Virus record (IMG/VR): IMGVR_UViG_3300029497_000144
Strand: one strand, 5' to 3'
From: a virus
Lineage: Duplodnaviria > Heunggongvirae > Uroviricota > Caudoviricetes
Length of the DNA: 9,388 bases
Part shown: piece by piece, positions 1,921 through 9,388 of the stretch
Layout of the letters: each line of letters begins with the position of its first letter
How positions within the stretch are numbered: the first letter of the stretch is position 1
The notes under the pieces: model-generated
What the model was told of the DNA's origin: nothing
Database searches by the model: none
The model's input: only the letters and a program-made list of their open reading frames with translations
Position numbers and translations under genes: made by a program

Positions 1921-2035
1921 GTGAAGGCGGAAAAGTAAGAATTGGCGTTACGAGTTATTCGTTGAATCTGTTTATTGAGTAGGAGTCTCTAGGCCGCGTG
2001 GTTACTGGATTCCTTGTAATGCGTTTTCTAAGTAG

Positions 2036-2053
2036 GTACACCCTTGTGTACAC
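2036..2053. promoter_or_regulatory. Inverted repeat GTACAC-CCTT-GTGTAC(AC), candidate operator upstream of CDS 2175-2534
   Basis: Perfect 6-bp inverted repeat with 4-bp spacer seen directly, about 125 bp upstream of the + strand gene. A TATGAT -10-like hexamer lies about 35 bp upstream of the ATG. Confidence 0.3.
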
Positions 2054-2174
2054 GGTATTTTGAGGTGCTGTCTTTGGCTGCTCATTTTATGCTCTCATGC
2101 TTGCTGTTCTGGCCTCTTATCTTTTGCGCCTTATTGTATGATAGTGCTATCCCACAATAAGGAATCAGCCAGCC

Positions 2175-2534
2175 ATGAGAATGACCAGCCGTAAAAAAGA
2201 GATACTCAGTTATTTTGAGCCGGATAACCTAGAATGGGTGACAGGTGAGATTGGTGCGCCGCCGTTCGATGTGTCGGGCGTGGCCTACCTGCTTCATGGC
2301 ATGGTGTCGTTCGATAAGCGCCACCAGCTCGAATCAACCAGGCGAACTCTTGAAAGTATGGTTGCTGGTGGGTTGCTTGAGCGTGTGACGGTGTATGAGT
2401 CTCGTCAGATACGGCGCGGCGGTGATACTAACGCAACGGTCGTGCGCTACGGTTTACCCGGTCACTGCGCTGTTATGCGCGATACTGGCGGCGCTGATAA
2501 CGCAATATCAGGCGAATACATGCGGGTCAGTTAA
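2175..2534 (+). CDS. Hypothetical protein (119 aa), the only + strand gene of the element part in view
   Basis: ORF with AAGGAA about 11 nt upstream of the ATG; no family recognised; convergent with the Icd-like gene. Confidence 0.6.
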   Translation: MRMTSRKKEILSYFEPDNLEWVTGEIGAPPFDVSGVAYLLHGMVSFDKRHQLESTRRTLESMVAGGLLERVTVYESRQIRRGGDTNATVVRYGLPGHCAVMRDTGGADNAISGEYMRVS

Positions 2535-2574
2535 GCCAGCACAATGACGCGTTACATGTGGAATAATCCCATAT

Positions 2575-2760
2575 CTACCTGCGCGGCGCTGGCTTCTTCC
2601 ACTGGTAGGCAGGTGCTCGCATCATTTCGCGGAACCTGTCGCGCCGGGCTATATCGGCATTAACTGATCGTTCTATCTCCCGTTGATCTGCCTGTGTAAG
2701 CTGGTGGCCTCCGTGCTCAAGTTTGGCGATGGTCAATAAGGCTATTTCGCGTGGTGTCAT
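2575..2760 (-). CDS. Small protein (61 aa), tentatively host cell division inhibitor Icd-like family
   Basis: ORF with GAGGG SD 8 nt upstream of the ATG; last gene of the 3948-to-2575 - strand gene string. The family assignment is recall of small Icd-like proteins annotated in P4-like elements and is unverified. Confidence 0.5.
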   Translation of the reverse strand: MTPREIALLTIAKLEHGGHQLTQADQREIERSVNADIARRDRFREMMRAPAYQWKKPAPRR

Positions 2761-2894
2761 ACGTCATACCCTCTGGAAGGATGAAACACGCCCGGATTAA
2801 ATTTCATTTTTCGCGGGTATGAAAAAACGATGGGGCGGGCAGTCCCGGACAGTCAGGGCTGTAGAGATTTGACTACCCCCTCCCCGCTGGTGGT

Positions 2895-3176
2895 CTACCT
2901 TTGCCTATTGCCGCCATTTAACCGGAAGGCGTTACCGTTCGGTTGCGCTATCCCCATGCGGTGTTGCGTTTCGGTAACAGCTTTATGCAGGTCGCCAAAG
3001 TCCTCAACCTTCACGGGCGGGCGCTTCACGTTCTCCAGACACGTTTCACGGCGGCGCTTTATCCATTCCCGATCATCGTCCTCGGTGCATAACAGCATGA
3101 CTTCCATCCATCGCGCTGCGGCGCGTCGGTACAGCCCTTTTGCTTCCAGATCCTCGGCTTTACTGTCGCTTACCAT
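2895..3176 (-). CDS. PerC-like transcriptional regulator (93 aa)
   Basis: Motif LEAKGLYRRAAARWMEV resembles the conserved core of the PerC/Pch family (recall). The start ATG lies 2 nt after the SSB stop, with GGGGGAG SD inside the SSB 3' end, implying translational coupling. Confidence 0.55.
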   Translation of the reverse strand: MVSDSKAEDLEAKGLYRRAAARWMEVMLLCTEDDDREWIKRRRETCLENVKRPPVKVEDFGDLHKAVTETQHRMGIAQPNGNAFRLNGGNRQR

Positions 3177-3178
3177 GT

Positions 3179-3649
3179 TTATCTCCCCCAGAATGGCGTT
3201 TCATCGTCGAATGGTGGGCGTTGGTCAAAATCATCAGGGGTATTATATAACTCCCATCCCGGCGCGGATTGTGTTGTGTGGCCCCTGCTGGCTCCGCTTG
3301 CTTTGACTGATTCGGCCCGCTTCCCGCCGGGGCGTACCGTTCTGGCGCTGATCACGCTGTCGGCTACTACCTGATAACCTTGCTGTGTACCGCCATCCTT
3401 GCCCGTCCACTGATTGATCTGCATCGCTCCGGCAACACTGACTAAATCGCCTTTAACGTGTCCTGCCAGTGCGTCGGCCTGTTTGCCGAATGCCACCACG
3501 CCCAGCCAGAAAGTAACCTCTCCGCCCTCTGCTGCATGGCAGGGCAGTGCCACCGCTAACCGGCCCATTGCCATGCTTGTACCGTTTGCTGTGGTACGGG
3601 TCTGGGGATCTGCCACCAGCCGCCCGTATGCTGAAATTTGTGCTGTCAT
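3179..3649 (-). CDS. Single-stranded DNA-binding protein (SSB) family homolog (156 aa)
   Basis: OB-fold pattern aligns by eye with E. coli SSB: G.L..DP..R....G...A...LA, then W..VV.FGK.A......KG..V, then WT...G.......VV, plus an acidic C-terminal DDFDQRPPFDDETPFWGR resembling the SSB DDDIPF tail. GAGGAA SD; start overlaps the stop of the upstream gene (ATGA). Confidence 0.75.
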   Translation of the reverse strand: MTAQISAYGRLVADPQTRTTANGTSMAMGRLAVALPCHAAEGGEVTFWLGVVAFGKQADALAGHVKGDLVSVAGAMQINQWTGKDGGTQQGYQVVADSVISARTVRPGGKRAESVKASGASRGHTTQSAPGWELYNTPDDFDQRPPFDDETPFWGR

Positions 3650-7712: not shown

Positions 7713-7721
7713 ACTATAACA
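7713..7721 (-). promoter_or_regulatory. Extended -10 promoter element TGtTATAGT (candidate leader promoter)
   Basis: - strand TGTTATAGT matches the extended -10 consensus TGnTATAAT at 8 of 9 positions. No good -35 is present. It lies about 45 nt upstream of the seqA-like repeat. Confidence 0.35.
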
Positions 7722-7836
7722 GCTTTTCTCTGCTAGGTGGTCATACCAGATAAAACCGTAACCCTTTAAGAGTTTTTCCTGTGCACGGCTCACCATCTTT
7801 TTGTTGAGGGTAAGCGCCTCGCGTACTGATAACGGA

Positions 7837-7846
7837 NNNNNNNNNN
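7837..7846. other. Run of 10 N in the leader/regulatory region
   Basis: Seen directly; lies between the TGTCAA/TTGACA palindrome and the candidate leader promoter. Confidence 1.
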
Positions 7847-7876
7847 TATCAATATCAGGTTTTGTAAGGTTGCAGA

Positions 7877-7891
7877 TGTCAACTTTTGACA
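7877..7891. promoter_or_regulatory. Perfect palindrome TGTCAA-CTT-TTGACA (candidate operator; each half is a consensus -35 hexamer on one strand)
   Basis: Seen directly, 42 bp downstream of the stop of CDS 7933-8115 and upstream of the leader. Confidence 0.35.
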
Positions 7892-7932
7892 ACATGCCAG
7901 CCAGATTAAAGGCTTCTTTCTGGGCGGCAGGT

Positions 7933-8115
7933 TCATTCAGTATCACGGCGCACCTCCACGAACTCCTTAACGAATCTCTCCAAAGGCTGAACACATGGCG
8001 ACTGATAGCCCTCGCGGTAAAAGGTCACGCGGTTATGCTCGACGCGCTGTACGGTCACTACAGCCCCGTGCGAATCCTTGTAACGGCTTCCCGGCATCGG
8101 ATTATGGTTACGCAT
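7933..8115 (-). CDS. Small hypothetical protein (60 aa)
   Basis: ORF MRNHNPMPGSRYKDSHGAVVTVQRVEHNRVTFYREGYQSPC...; its start overlaps the 3' end of the AntA-like gene by 8 nt (coupled arrangement). Family not recognised with confidence. Confidence 0.5.
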   Translation of the reverse strand: MRNHNPMPGSRYKDSHGAVVTVQRVEHNRVTFYREGYQSPCVQPLERFVKEFVEVRRDTE

Positions 8116-8941
8116 GGTTTACCCCCATACGCTTCGCCAGCCAGCGCTGTGAAAGGCGCATTAACTCGTCTTTGCGCTTCTGGTAGTCCTGCCCCAGCTC
8201 AATTAGCGTGATATTGGTGCTTTCCAGATAGGCGAGGTGTTCAAGCTGTGCTGCGTTCATGCTGTCCCGTGGTTCGCCAGTAATGCCATTTGCCTGCGCC
8301 CACTGCTTTGCCGTCATGCCACCCAGCACGATACGGGCGATCATGTTGCTCTCGTTGCTGTAGTGGCGCTGCTGTGTCTGTTTGCCCTGTTCTGCGCGGG
8401 CGCTTTCAAGTGCTGCGCACATCGGCTTAAACAGGTTGGCGGCACTGATACGGGCTTTTAGCTGGCGGCGATACTGAGCGGCAATCTCTGGCACGCTGCG
8501 CTGTAGTGCTTCCTCACACTGAATGAAGTAACGTCGAACGGCGCGGCCCTGTTCGGTGCGTTCGATCATTGCCAGTTCTTTCGCCATTCCGACACTTAAC
8601 AGATAGTCTTTGCCGGGTCTGCCAGAGTGCTTAATCTTGCTGTAAGCCGCGCCATTCGGGCTTTTCCCCAAATTTGGGGAAATAGTTTTATGGACTGAGT
8701 AATCGTGCCCAATGGTGAAGTCATATTCAGAGATGCGATCAGTGATCCATGTAGAGAAGTCTTTTCCCACGCCCAACGCTTTGTGTAACGCTTTTGCGCT
8801 AACAATATTGGTTTCACGCCCACCGATATGACCAGGAATAACCGGGACAATTGCGGCAAATTCATTACCGTTAATTGTGCCCTGATAGGCGTTCAGATGA
8901 GGGGCGGCCTCAGAAATTAATCTGCTTTTTTCGATGTTCAT
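8108..8941 (-). CDS. Phage antirepressor-like protein, AntA/AntB N-terminal domain (277 aa)
   Basis: Region NIVSAKALHKALGVGKDFSTWITDRISEYDF...GRPGKDYLLSVGMAKELAMIERTEQGRAVRRYFIQCEE matches the recalled AntA/AntB antirepressor signature (KDFS.WI ... AKELAM ... RRYFI.CE). GGAG SD 5 nt upstream of the ATG. Confidence 0.7.
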   Translation of the reverse strand: MNIEKSRLISEAAPHLNAYQGTINGNEFAAIVPVIPGHIGGRETNIVSAKALHKALGVGKDFSTWITDRISEYDFTIGHDYSVHKTISPNLGKSPNGAAYSKIKHSGRPGKDYLLSVGMAKELAMIERTEQGRAVRRYFIQCEEALQRSVPEIAAQYRRQLKARISAANLFKPMCAALESARAEQGKQTQQRHYSNESNMIARIVLGGMTAKQWAQANGITGEPRDSMNAAQLEHLAYLESTNITLIELGQDYQKRKDELMRLSQRWLAKRMGVNHA

Positions 8942-8953
8942 TTTCAGTCTCCG

Positions 8954-9388
8954 TTAGGCGGCGGTGAAATTGTCCGGGTATAGATTGAGAATGTCGGCAA
9001 TTTCAGGCTGAGAAAGTCCCTGATAGCCGCCAGCGTCGGCGTTATGGTTCACAAGCCGAATAACTTTTAGAACGTCACTGCGCCCGGTAAAGCGATAGCG
9101 TAAATGTGACCCTATCCCGTCGGGGTTCTTTTCGTCTATACGCTCTAACTGAATATCAAGTCTGCGTTCTAACTCGCTGGCGTAGTTCCTTCCAGACGAA
9201 AGGCGGCAGTAGCGCAGAATGTCGTTTTCTGTCCATCCCTCTACCCCAGTGCGTGGCATATAGACGCGGGCGCGGTGCTTCTTCGGTGTGCGGCGTGGCG
9301 CTTGTGTGGTGGGCGCTGGTGGCGTAACATCAGATCCGCGAATATCTATGTTAGCCGCCTGCTGTCCGGGGCGGTTTTCTTTTTTCAT
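8954..9388 (-). CDS. Hypothetical protein (at least 144 aa) with basic N-terminal region; start codon at the window edge
   Basis: ORF beginning at the last three bases of the window (ATG 9388-9386), so the true start and SD cannot be checked; the stop is 13 nt upstream of the AntA-like start. Confidence 0.5.
   Translation of the reverse strand: MKKENRPGQQAANIDIRGSDVTPPAPTTQAPRRTPKKHRARVYMPRTGVEGWTENDILRYCRLSSGRNYASELERRLDIQLERIDEKNPDGIGSHLRYRFTGRSDVLKVIRLVNHNADAGGYQGLSQPEIADILNLYPDNFTAA

Follow-up and report, generated by a model that had tools for sequence, protein, structure and literature searches.

A probable Gram-negative phage-inducible chromosomal island with a C4-type RNA immunity cassette at the yicC–dinD site of Escherichia coli

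On sequence evidence, the element in the analyzed window (the whole 9,388-nucleotide stretch of IMG/VR record IMGVR_UViG_3300029497_000144) is very probably a Gram-negative phage-inducible chromosomal island (PICI) of E. coli, located in the 3′ end of yicC and adjoining dinD. This degree of confidence covers the best explanation as a whole: the PICI identity, the RNA-immunity cassette, and the working proposed below. The island family, Gram-negative PICIs, is already published and not new. The first-pass annotation had proposed a mosaic in which AntA and SSB modules stood instead of sid, delta, and psu beside a P4-like replication and immunity core, possibly representing a different island family. 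All elements of that core were detected (C4 RNA, isrK leader, P4-alpha-like primase, and iteron origin), and its sharing by a different family was upheld; the family is, however, a published one. AntA and SSB recur in PICI relatives and are therefore standard modules of the family, not substitutes.

Attachment site and gene order

The island occupied approximately positions 1955 to 9388 of the window, with dinD on one side and yicC on the other. Its left edge (about 1955–1970) was set by comparison with the empty K-12 site TTATTCGATGTTCTGAATCTG and the attR of relative L001, and lies close to position 1921, where the element had been said to start. The attL-like sequence overlapped the published att of EcCIRM13514, GAGCAGATTCAA (reverse complement TTGAATCTGCTC). 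Integration was seen as empty versus occupied site, with Int, alpA, and attR found in relatives. The right edge falls past the window end (9388), where int, alpA, and attR of the present copy presumably lie, judging from relatives 95–97% identical. The window share of the island is about 7.4 kb and the whole island is 10–13.5 kb. Two 10-N masks (6982–6991 and 7837–7846) each broke one ORF, leaving two frames not fully verifiable. The features outside the immunity cassette were as follows:

1955..1970, unstranded: attL-like junction with the chromosome, left island end, TTATTCGTTGAATCTG; degenerate copy of the yicC 3′ end
2175..2534, plus: 119-aa ORF, the sole plus-strand gene, convergent with the main operon
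2575..2760, minus: 61-aa ORF, 100% identical in L001 and EcCIMP1, matching only phrog_7271 (unknown function)
2895..3176, minus: PerC-family regulator (Pfam PerC, 1.8e-29), a typical accessory gene of E. coli PICIs
3179..3649, minus: single-stranded DNA-binding protein (SSB) of the replication zone (Pfam SSB, 1.2e-14)
3646..3948, minus: 100-aa ORF, first gene past the origin; overlaps the start of SSB, with 100% identity to its L001 and L002 counterparts
4001..4252, unstranded: replication origin, with an AT-rich centre flanked by iterons (A/T)ATCCCTAC of both orientations
4268..6709, minus: primase-helicase (pri-rep) of P4 alpha type (Pfam Zn_Ribbon_Prim, Toprim_3, D5_N, DUF5906, Pox_D5; TIGR01613)
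6702..7045, minus: ORF of about 113 aa (phrog_37628, 2.4e-30), just upstream of the primase, whose start it overlaps
7933..8115, minus: 60-aa DUF4222 protein (Pfam DUF4222, 1.1e-22), 72–98% identical in relatives
8108..8941, minus: AntA/AntB-family (Bro-network) antirepressor-like protein (Pfam AntA, 3.6e-21; phrog_5817 anti-repressor, 6.3e-37)
8954..9388, minus: 144-aa ORF, flanked by antA and, outside the window, alpA

The main operon was a single leftward chain of ORFs with start and stop codons overlapping along it. The order, beginning beyond the window (from relatives), was int, variable ORF, alpA, then the 144-aa ORF, AntA, DUF4222, the Ash/Eta ORF, a 20-aa mini-ORF, the 113-aa ORF, the primase-helicase, and the iteron origin, with the 100-aa ORF, SSB, PerC, and the 61-aa ORF at the origin-distal end. 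Among these, complete relatives carried int, the variable ORF, alpA, the 144-aa ORF, AntA, DUF4222, and the Ash/Eta ORF with its RNA, followed by primase, origin, SSB, and PerC. The co-directional genes reported upstream of the leader (9388..8954, 8941..8108, and 8115..7933) were all confirmed. The 144-aa ORF was 74–90% identical in EcCIMP1, L001, and a second relative, L002; it had 674 homologue clusters in Enterobacterales, every one annotated as hypothetical, and its structure model (pLDDT 51.7) was unusable. The AntA protein was 86% identical to that of EcCIMP1 and had full-length homologues in many Enterobacterales.

The primase ATG at 6709 is the start annotated in relatives; the open frame reaches 6766 (ORF 6766..4268). 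The protein aligned with P4 alpha across 96% of its length at 38% identity; residues 379–819 had 55% identity with Pri-Rep of EcCICFT073, and residues 4–367 had 69% identity with the EcCIMP1 primase. The 113-aa ORF, 84–89% identical to counterparts in L001, L002, and EcCIMP1, is broken by the mask at 6982–6991, and its frame is not verifiable. The repeat search revealed at least 12 iteron copies at 4001–4252, directly downstream of the primase (repeat families D1–D3 and inverted pairs I1–I18); L001 has the same repeats.

Past the origin, an operon of SSB, PerC-like, and Icd-like genes had been proposed. SSB (61% identity to that of EcCICFT073, 57% to that of EcCIRM13514) and PerC (92% to the EcCIMP1 PerC-like protein, 43–45% to PerC of EcCICFT073 and EcCIRM13514) were indeed present there; the sole Icd-like domain is instead in the ORF directly after the C4 RNA (7439..7101). 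The 61-aa ORF (2760..2575) was rejected as an Icd-like candidate, having no similarity to the latter. The 100-aa ORF had no PDB match and was dissimilar to the 85-aa ORF at the equivalent position of EcCICFT073. The 119-aa ORF, 98–100% identical in L001, L002, and EcCIMP1 and 65% identical in EcCIRM13514, had no match in Pfam, PHROG, NCBIfam, PADLOC, or PDB.

Immunity RNA and the reading frame across it

The cassette was of the P4/P1 type, in the order a1/b1, terminator, C4/CI RNA, a2/b2, and was nested in the Ash/Eta ORF:

7101..7439, minus: Icd/Kil-like ORF, 112 aa (NCBIfam NF033153, phage_ICD_like, 6.5e-10)
7101..7946, minus: long Ash/Eta-like ORF, GTG start at 7946, with leader, C4 gene, and Icd-like ORF in a single frame
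7450..7486, minus: downstream targets a2 and b2, complementary to C4 loops a′ and b′
7494..7581, minus: C4/CI-type immunity RNA gene (Rfam RF01695, C4 antisense RNA, 81.1 bits, E 3.6e-15; gathering score 45 bits)
7630..7719, minus: leader corresponding to P4 seqA (Rfam isrK, 60.3 bits; c4-a1b1, 25.2 bits; P4 alignment)
7713..7718, minus: putative −10 (TATAGT) of a constitutive leader promoter, by presumed analogy with P4 PLE

P4 gave the same two Rfam matches (C4 and the isrK/c4-a1b1 region) in identical order. In the leader, targets a1 (GTGGAAA, 7681..7675) and b1 were followed by an intrinsic terminator at 7651..7635, the sole minus-strand terminator-like site that the terminator scan found between 9388 and 7100; the earlier statement that no terminator precedes the leader thus held. 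The C4 loops were a′ (TTTCCAC, 7522..7516) and b′ (TCCTTTGTGT, 7538..7529). Target a2 (GTGGAAA) was located at 7486..7480, and b2 (ACACAAAGGA, 7459..7450) overlapped the sequence AAGGAGG, the Shine–Dalgarno of the Icd/Kil-like ORF. The 7-nt a′ loop was exactly complementary to both a1 and a2 in three differing specificities; b′ had a 9–10-nt complement at b2 and a match of just 5 nt at b1. Targets a2 and b2 changed in step with the loops across L001, EcCIMP1, and P4, the last being a fourth specificity. Across 18 relatives or loci, 98.9% of cells in the C4 RNA structure were paired, with compensatory change at 19 of the 28 pairs. This co-variation of loops and targets across several specificities is modestly new.

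The TATAGT hexamer was aligned in the window, L001, and P4, and EcCIMP1 has TATGGT. The leader promoter is a guess, because the promoter scan called no consensus sigma-70 promoter across the whole island.

The Ash/Eta ORF, with the mask 7837–7846 inside it, overlapped the DUF4222 stop by 14 nt at its start and was 42% identical to the P4 ‘cI ORF’ (cI/kil ORF). The window, L001, and L002 all had this frame open, and Pfam Phage_ASH matched the ORF of relatives (1e-20 to 1e-23). An open frame with an Ash match was also present in Klebsiella (322 aa) and Orbaceae (413 aa); that an ORF across the RNA gene stays open this far is likewise modestly new. The Icd/Kil-like ORF, homologous to the P4 kil region, lies directly 3′ of the C4 RNA as the 3′ part of the Ash/Eta ORF.

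Late functions and alternative explanations

Sid, Delta, Psu, and Epsilon were not found by tblastn in the window and three complete relatives (all E > 0.5), nor by Pfam and PHROG searches, in agreement with the reported absence of sid, delta, and psu. We failed to find terS, a capsid or Rpp homologue (Pfam and PHROG among the searches), or a P2/P4 or lambda cos. PADLOC recovered no known defence protein in the window, as had been suggested of defence enzymes. A cargo hotspot had been expected past 9388, where relatives carry alpA, one highly variable ORF (281–316 aa), int, and attR; this variable slot exists, but it is small and without a recognisable defence system, and the expectation is therefore weakly borne out.

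The missing Late zone, terS, rpp, capsid gene, and cos would fit an immobile or passively transferred cryptic PICI remnant without packaging means, kept for its accessory genes (PerC, variable ORFs). SatelliteFinder criteria (int, alpA, primase) would rank the island no higher than an ambiguous ‘Type C’ PICI, and the authors of that tool regard elements with int, alpA, and primase only as possibly defective. We nevertheless consider such a remnant unlikely: every ORF is intact with coupled overlaps; the AntA–leader module is widespread, occurring in 806 of 5426 complete E. coli genomes at several sites; the 144-aa ORF, 97% identical to Klebsiella proteins, bears signs of recent intergeneric transfer; the end module is 92–100% identical to that of EcCIMP1, located at another att site; and the helper of EcCIMP1 transduces that island, although no terS or gene for capsid morphogenesis is recognisable in it either.

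The island shares the left operon of P4 (alpA, Eta/CI RNA/Kil, primase). This operon could, with an integrase, be what remains of a P4-like satellite in decay, from which the late operon (sid, delta, psu), cos, and epsilon have disappeared, and the primase identity with P4 alpha, the homologous immunity cassette, and the AlpA of relatives (33–35% identical to P4 Vis) agree with such an origin. It is very improbable and already largely refuted, since the four P4 proteins are untraceable by tblastn in the window and complete relatives, no P2-type cos was found, and only three of the seven components defining the P4-like family (PMC8628076) are present. Moreover, this layout is found again, intact, in 45 complete E. 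coli genomes and in other genera, SSB and the helicase half of the primase resemble those of EcCICFT073 more than P4, and the integrase of relatives is merely 26.5% identical to P4 Int. Same-site relatives have int and att and no sid, delta, or psu, which speaks against both a rearranged canonical P4 remnant and an element lacking integrase or att.

A temperate-phage remnant (P1/P7-like immI or lambdoid antirepressor region) is scarcely credible and already refuted by the complete relatives: c4, icd, and ant do make up the P1 immI operon, AntA N-terminal domains share 44–52% identity with antirepressors from Stx phages and others, and the isrK family was defined in the Gifsy-1 prophage (PMC4825925), but structural, lysis, and phage-repressor genes are absent from the window and the complete 10–13.5 kb relatives, the order differs from immI (here ant is upstream of c4 and replication genes are downstream), the longest nucleotide match among 50,697 phage records was 53 bp, and inward int then alpA distinguishes PICIs from prophages (PMC10111431).

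Proposed working and comparison with known islands

The working of the presumed PICI can be sketched by analogy with P4, EcCICFT073, and EcCIMP1. In the resting state, an internal constitutive promoter would produce a leader processed into C4 RNA, which would pair with its targets, stopping transcription and translation and keeping the replication genes silent; it would also exclude incoming islands sharing its specificity. Development of a helper phage would switch on alpA (AlpA is the activator in EcCICFT073 according to the literature), and transcription would enter from upstream. Ribosomes on the coupled ORF chain, including Ash/Eta, would then cross the leader, preventing termination and allowing primase synthesis. 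Int and AlpA would excise the island, which would replicate from its own origin with its own SSB and enter helper capsids by a packaging route not visible in the sequence. AntA may inactivate the repressor of a helper prophage.

Integration, Bro, Replication, and Late zones, C4/isrK RNAs, and SSB were already described in these islands (Mageeney 2023; PMC10111431); the same 2023 survey reported antirepressor-type (Bro-network) genes, an eta/kil translation model, and C4/isrK matches in Gram-negative PICIs. EcCIRM13514 is a reference PICI listed at the same yicC–dinD site (Fillol-Salom 2018; PMC6092414 supplement). The C4 RNA is absent from both reference PICIs, EcCICFT073 and EcCIRM13514, and the RNA switch is therefore not general to PICIs.

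The synteny comparison proposed at the first pass showed that the layout matches EcCIMP1 and the yicC–dinD relatives, not P4. EcCIMP1 differs by its ejection-protein, lytic-transglycosylase, and DUF2824 phage genes, which the present island lacks. It has the same layout of int, alpA, a 143-aa ORF, AntA, DUF4222, Ash/C4, Icd, and primase, likewise shares PerC and the 61-aa and 119-aa ORFs, and has proved in experiments to be excised, dependent on alpA, and transduced by phage Kapi1 (Pick 2025; PMC11773190).

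Integration site and gene content

Bases 1–1746 of the window were ordinary E. coli chromosome and carried two genes:

1..672, minus strand, yicG, E. coli chromosome
910..1746, minus strand, dinD, E. coli chromosome

The att site was located via comparison with the K-12 empty site, in which the sequence ...GAGTTATTCGATGTTCTGAATCTGCTC... forms the 3' end of yicC. In the alignment to K-12, the window departed from the empty site at ~1955–1970 (TTATTCGTTGAATCTG), and the far junction in a complete relative restored the yicC end (CTTACTCGATATTCTGAATCTGCTC). Therefore, the island sits in the 3' end of yicC, beside dinD, and the portion within the window is its dinD-proximal 7.4 kb. 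The repeat search gave no direct repeats on either side of the island. This chromosomal locus is already known for two phage-inducible chromosomal islands (PICIs): according to a PICI supplementary table, EcCIRM13514 is located at yicC–dinD with the att GAGCAGATTCAA, and CfCIP10159 at yicC–yicG (Fillol-Salom et al. 2018, PMC6092414). GTACAC-containing repeats (GGTACACC/GTGTACAC) were grouped just inside both island ends (window 2034–2054; 30065–30130 in L001, a related island at the yicC site), two copies by attL and four beside int; they may be arm-type sites of the integrase. The palindromic motif GGTGTACACC was not enriched across the whole window.

All island genes except one were encoded on the minus strand. 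The following features were identified:

upstream of the leader, co-directional with it: AntA-family protein, DUF4222 protein, and 144-aa ORF
6766..4268, minus strand, primase ORF of 832 aa with Zn-ribbon, Toprim, D5_N, DUF5906, and Pox_D5 domains
4001–4252, iteron origin, directly downstream of the primase
downstream of the origin: 100-aa ORF, SSB, PerC-family protein, and 61-aa ORF (Pfam matches for SSB and PerC)

The primase was 38% identical to P4 alpha with 96% of the length covered and also matched TIGR01613, the P4-family primase. At least a dozen iterons (A/T)ATCCCTAC were found in the origin in both orientations, with an AT-rich centre between them. Overlaps of start and stop codons linked the DUF4222 gene, the Ash/Eta ORF (a long frame containing the leader, the gene of the antisense immunity RNA C4, and an Icd-like ORF), a 20-aa mini-ORF, the 113-aa ORF, and the primase, in this order. 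The mini-ORF (MSNAPTIKSGNAAGALRGAT, window 7042–7104), joining the Icd-like and 113-aa ORFs with an ATGA overlap at each end, looks like a translational-coupling relay. Two runs of 10 N, at 6982–6991 and 7837–7846, both lay within ORFs. The former disrupted the frame of the ~113-aa ORF (7045..6702, 344 nt vs. 342 nt in relatives), and the latter, where relatives have 16 nt, left the Ash/Eta frame intact; the N masks may not preserve length.

Promoter-like sites were markedly depleted in the island relative to shuffles: a sigma-70 consensus scan of window 1900–9388 gave none, against 6.2 ± 2.3 from shuffled sequences. The first-pass annotation had described co-directional 144-aa, AntA-like, and 60-aa genes upstream of the leader with no terminator before it; this was confirmed, the sole minus-strand terminator-like site across 9388–7100 being within the leader (7651..7635). 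Its SSB/PerC-like/Icd-like operon after the origin was correct for SSB and PerC; the Icd-like domain (NCBIfam NF033153) belonged to ORF 7439..7101, directly after the C4 RNA, and the 61-aa ORF was unrelated to it.

The 100-, 144-, 119-, 113-, and 61-aa ORFs had no relatives in the PDB (phmmer), and a structure model of the 144-aa ORF built on a 22-sequence alignment was unusable (pLDDT of 51.7). The nearest homologues of this ORF (8954–9388) were 97% identical and came from Klebsiella pneumoniae and K. quasipneumoniae, and those of the yicC-site E. coli relatives were 88–90% identical, which hints at a recent movement of this region between genera. Within antA, a stretch of 53 bp (8630–8682) including the palindrome TTTCCCCAAATTTGGGGAAA (8663–8682) had counterparts of 94% identity in many Stx-converting and related phages, annotated there as hypothetical or not at all.

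At least 80% of the window was matched at ~95–97% identity in 45 complete E. coli genomes, five of which were examined in full. From the dinD end, these relatives encoded the 119-aa ORF (plus strand), the 61-aa ORF, variable genes (PerC or others), SSB, the 100-aa ORF, the origin, the primase, the 113-aa ORF, and small ORFs, followed by the long ORF annotated as "Icd-like" or "ash", DUF4222, AntA, and a 115–144-aa ORF. An AlpA-family HTH protein, a single variable ORF (281–316 aa), and a tyrosine integrase completed the yicC end. The DUF4222 gene was without annotation in the related islands L008 and L009, and in L009 the long ORF directly adjoined AntA. The island lengths ranged from 10.2 kb (L001) to 13.5 kb (L002). 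By Pfam, the integrase consisted of Arm-DNA-bind_3 and Phage_integrase and the HTH protein of Phage_AlpA; they were 26.5% identical to P4 Int and 33–35% identical to P4 Vis, respectively. Running inward, int followed by alpA was present in all complete relatives examined at the yicC site; in our copy this part lies beyond the window end, which coincides with the start codon of the gene after alpA. The ORFs in the slot between int and alpA had little or no relation among themselves. Of 5426 complete E. coli genomes, the AntA–leader module was present in 806 and the integrase type in 383.

The Rfam int-alpA RNA motif RF02996 was found in L002, the S43 relative, where it separates the variable ORF from the integrase (57.1 bits, 23200–23266); it was not reported in L001 at the gathering score. 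The RefSeq names "nicotinic acetylcholine receptor subunit beta" and "ubiquinol-cytochrome C reductase" on small island ORFs (L002 19129–19703; L008 13551–13814; L009 13067–13641; L010 11813–12076) are evidently propagated mis-annotations.

Immunity RNA and the Ash/Eta frame

The immunity region consisted of two Rfam matches and the complements of the C4 loops:

7719..7630, minus strand, isrK/c4-a1b1 target region (Rfam)
7581..7494, minus strand, C4 antisense RNA (Rfam, 81.1 bits vs. a gathering score of 45)
7681..7675, minus strand, target a1 (with b1), loop complement
7486..7480, minus strand, target a2, loop complement
7459..7450, minus strand, target b2, loop complement

P4 itself gave the same two matches in identical order. 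The loops of the C4 RNA in the window were TTTCCAC (a') and TCCTTTGTGT (b'), with complements both upstream and downstream, and b2 covered the AAGGAGG of the Icd-like ORF. In L001, the published island EcCIMP1, and P4 the loops were different from these, and both target copies changed in step. About 13 distinct loop combinations were counted in 18 loci sampled, and the yicC-site islands (L008, L009, L010, L001, and the window) represented at least four C4 loop/target specificities.

A covariance model of the C4 RNA was built on five copies. Over 18 copies, 98.9% of cells were paired, with compensatory change in 19 of 28 pairs; a control with slid partners gave 33.8–54.9% pairing. With the model, 15 of 28 AntA loci, spread over many Enterobacterales genera and Orbaceae, were found to have the C4 RNA at a distance of 0.3–1.9 kb on the downstream side of AntA. 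One contig labelled Chryseobacterium sp. (CACSKA010000004.1) encoded an AntA 72% identical to that of the window and a C4 RNA whose loops matched those of the window; this island of enterobacterial type under a Bacteroidota label is probably contamination or mislabelling.

The Ash/Eta ORF, from GTG 7946 to 7101, spanned in a single frame the leader and the RNA gene as well as the Icd-like ORF. It matched Pfam Phage_ASH, and its identity to the P4 ORF that overlaps cI and kil was 42%. The frame was open in the window, L001, and L002, as annotated in L009 and L010, and also in Klebsiella (322 aa) and Orbaceae (413 aa); the synteny check outside Escherichia covered these two loci. A P4 hallmark, immunity by a CI RNA with seqA/seqC targets in nested eta/kil, was present in the island; it is not a SatelliteFinder component.

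Late genes, defence, and classification

Of the P4 proteins Sid, Delta, Psu, and Epsilon, none was recognized by tblastn against the window and three complete relatives (L001, L002, and the EcCIMP1 locus): the best E values were 3.4 for Sid, which also had no Pfam or PHROG match, 0.54 for Delta (chance short segments outside the island), 2.9 for Psu, and 5.3 for Epsilon. The 19-nt P2/P4 cos was not found in the window at up to 3 mismatches, and in the islands of relatives, at up to 4 mismatches, the only match was a 4-mismatch chance one in L002; lambda cosN gave matches at chance level only. The P4-like immunity and replication core lacking sid, delta, and psu, as proposed from the first reading, is borne out by the C4 and isrK RNAs, the primase, and the empty late-gene searches. 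PADLOC found no known defence proteins in the window, in agreement with that reading, or in ten variable ORFs of relatives; the sole exception was a weak partial match of the AntA C-terminus to the candidate family PDC-S22.

The sequence offered no explanation for packaging: in the search for a Late/packaging zone, no capsid or terS genes were found by Pfam or PHROG, no Rpp, and no cos. Packaging redirection of the Rpp type was considered for the 144-aa ORF, which has the same length as RppA, and was rejected for want of similarity. That the island is cryptic and no longer packageable is improbable: its coupled ORFs are intact, near-identical modules appear to have been exchanged between att sites, and copies of the 144-aa ORF are 97% identical in Klebsiella. 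A canonical or decayed P4 was rejected, as neither a remnant of Sid, Delta, Psu, or Epsilon nor a P2-type cos was found in the window and the relatives searched; the conserved, intact, and widespread layout also speaks against decay. A prophage remnant was ruled out by the lack of structural and lysis genes (tail, holin, and lysis genes were absent from the window and relatives) and by the sole nucleotide match to phage records being the 53 bp in antA.

A P4-like satellite needs at least five of the seven defining components, namely int, psu, delta, sid, alpA, epsilon, and alpha (PMC8628076); with int and alpA counted from its relatives, the island would have three. On the same count it would have three of the five PICI components of SatelliteFinder, "Type C", and EcCIMP1 was likewise classed as "Type C" by Pick et al. 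(PMC11773190). Gram-negative PICIs comprise Integration, Bro, Replication, and Late zones; the Bro zone consists of Bro-network genes, optionally accompanied by C4/isrK RNAs, and SSB belongs to the Replication zone (Mageeney et al. 2023, PMC10111431). Features of the Bro zone (AntA; the Ash/Eta ORF with C4 and isrK RNAs) and of the Replication zone (primase, iteron origin just downstream, SSB) were present, and the islands of relatives were within the ~8–15 kb expected of PICIs. Judged by gene content and order, the layout of the island is that of a Gram-negative PICI. The first-pass annotation was right in suggesting a different satellite or island family; that family is the published Gram-negative PICIs, site and RNAs included. 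Rfam C4 and isrK match several of them, and the P4 eta/kil model has been discussed for them (PMC10111431).

The discovery value is little because the island type, integration site, zone architecture, and P4-like immunity RNAs are all published already. Our additions are confirmatory: the loop/target covariation over several specificities, the frame kept open through the RNA gene, and the island's mosaic relationship with EcCIMP1, EcCIRM13514, and EcCICFT073. The island illustrates well that "Type C" elements with int, alpA, and primase, left without a class by automatic finders, can be assigned through their synteny with validated PICIs.

Proposed working and relation to known systems

A working scheme can be proposed by analogy with P4 (Forti et al. 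1999, in the summary of PMC10111431) and with what is known of AlpA in EcCICFT073 and EcCIMP1. At rest, the leader and hence the C4 RNA would come from an internal promoter (conserved TATAGT, 7718..7713), and the RNA would shut off the expression of Icd and the primase. This promoter is putative and deduced from the conserved TATAGT, since the consensus promoter scan was empty in the island. A helper would turn on alpA; upstream transcripts would then be translated through Ash/Eta, termination would be escaped, and the island would replicate. The co-variation of loops and targets, together with the frame kept open through the RNA gene, is sequence-level support for a mechanism in which some Gram-negative PICIs may gate the replication operon by a P4/P1-type antisense RNA. 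Doubtful, and offered tentatively, is a broader reading, in which the C4-RNA-bearing PICIs (the island, EcCIMP1, and relatives ranging from Escherichia to Orbaceae) would be a lineage linking P4-like satellites and Gram-negative PICIs, the co-varying loop/target variants would represent RNA heteroimmunity among competing satellites, and the upstream AntA would actively derepress resident helper prophages, in the way that P4 epsilon acts on P2.

With int and alpA taken from its relatives, the island shared with EcCIMP1 the backbone and the order int, alpA, 143/144-aa ORF, AntA, DUF4222, Ash ORF with isrK and C4, Icd-like ORF, 113-aa ORF, primase, PerC, 61-aa ORF, and 119-aa ORF. Protein identities were 74% for the 143/144-aa ORF, 86% for AntA, 72% for DUF4222, 73% for the Icd-like ORF, 84% for the 113-aa ORF, 69% for the N-terminal half of the primase, 92% for PerC, 100% for the 61-aa ORF, and 99% for the convergent 119-aa ORF. 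For EcCIMP1 of E. coli MP1, helper-dependent excision, alpA dependence, and transduction by Kapi1 were determined experimentally (Pick, Stadel & Raivio 2025, PMC11773190). Among the relatives, mobilization by a helper phage (excision, replication, and high-frequency transfer) is on record for EcCIMP1 and EcCICFT073. It differs in its length of 20 kb, location in tRNA-Thr, and integrase; the C-terminal half of its primase is of the DUF927 type, unlike that of the window. EcCIMP1 additionally has phage ejection-protein, lytic-transglycosylase, and DUF2824 genes and a second alpA, lacks SSB, and its C4 specificity is different (a' CTGCGAA, b' CCTTGTACG). The end module (119-aa and 61-aa ORFs and PerC; window 2175–3176 vs. 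1220–2999 in the EcCIMP1 locus) was 92–100% identical to EcCIMP1 at the protein level, and the remaining backbone only 70–86%, with the EcCIMP1 att in tRNA-Thr; this suggests that the end module was recently exchanged between islands.

EcCIRM13514 and CfCIP10159 have the integration locus found here, with overlapping att cores (CfCIP10159 was compared by the supplementary table only). With EcCIRM13514 the island has its first ~100 bp and the gene order in common; in EcCIRM13514 this order runs from int over a hypothetical ORF, HTH, Bro-type genes (Rha and an AntA fragment), Icd-like, primase, SSB, and PerC to a 119-aa-like ORF. The proteins are only 45–65% identical; EcCIRM13514 lacks the C4 RNA, contains Rha and ProQ/FinO genes, and its AntA and Icd genes are fragmentary. 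The prototype Gram-negative PICI, EcCICFT073, has the order int, alpA, Icd-like, DUF4222, primase, origin, small ORF, SSB, and PerC. Identity to the proteins of the window was 61% for its SSB and 55% for the helicase half of its Pri-Rep, which is closer than P4 alpha. It differs by a Late zone (capsid, decoration protein, RppA) with cos and by its location between ycfD and phoQ, and has neither AntA nor the C4 RNA.

The left operon of P4 is homologous to that of the island: vis/alpA (present in relatives of the island), eta with seqA (isrK), the CI (C4) RNA, kil, the alpha primase, and replication repeats downstream. Unlike P4, the island lacks sid, delta, psu, epsilon, gop/beta/cII, and a P2-type cos; its iteron sequence is not that of P4, the integrase of its relatives is only distantly related, and AntA, DUF4222, SSB, and PerC are absent from P4.

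In the immI region of P1/P7 (c4, icd, ant), a two-loop antisense RNA pairs with duplicated targets, and specificity variants have co-varying loops and targets. As in immI, the targets of the island are duplicated (a1/b1, a2/b2), b2 overlaps the icd ribosome-binding site, and c4 is followed by icd. However, the antirepressor gene is upstream of the RNA rather than downstream, so that the order c4, icd, ant, with ant as the regulated output, is not found; the genes under control on the downstream side are replication genes, beginning with the 113-aa ORF and the primase. Like the island, the isrK-orf45-anrP locus of Gifsy-1 has a partial terminator behind the first targets (PMC4825925). The carrier is an island here and a phage for both the P1/P7 immI and Gifsy-1 loci.
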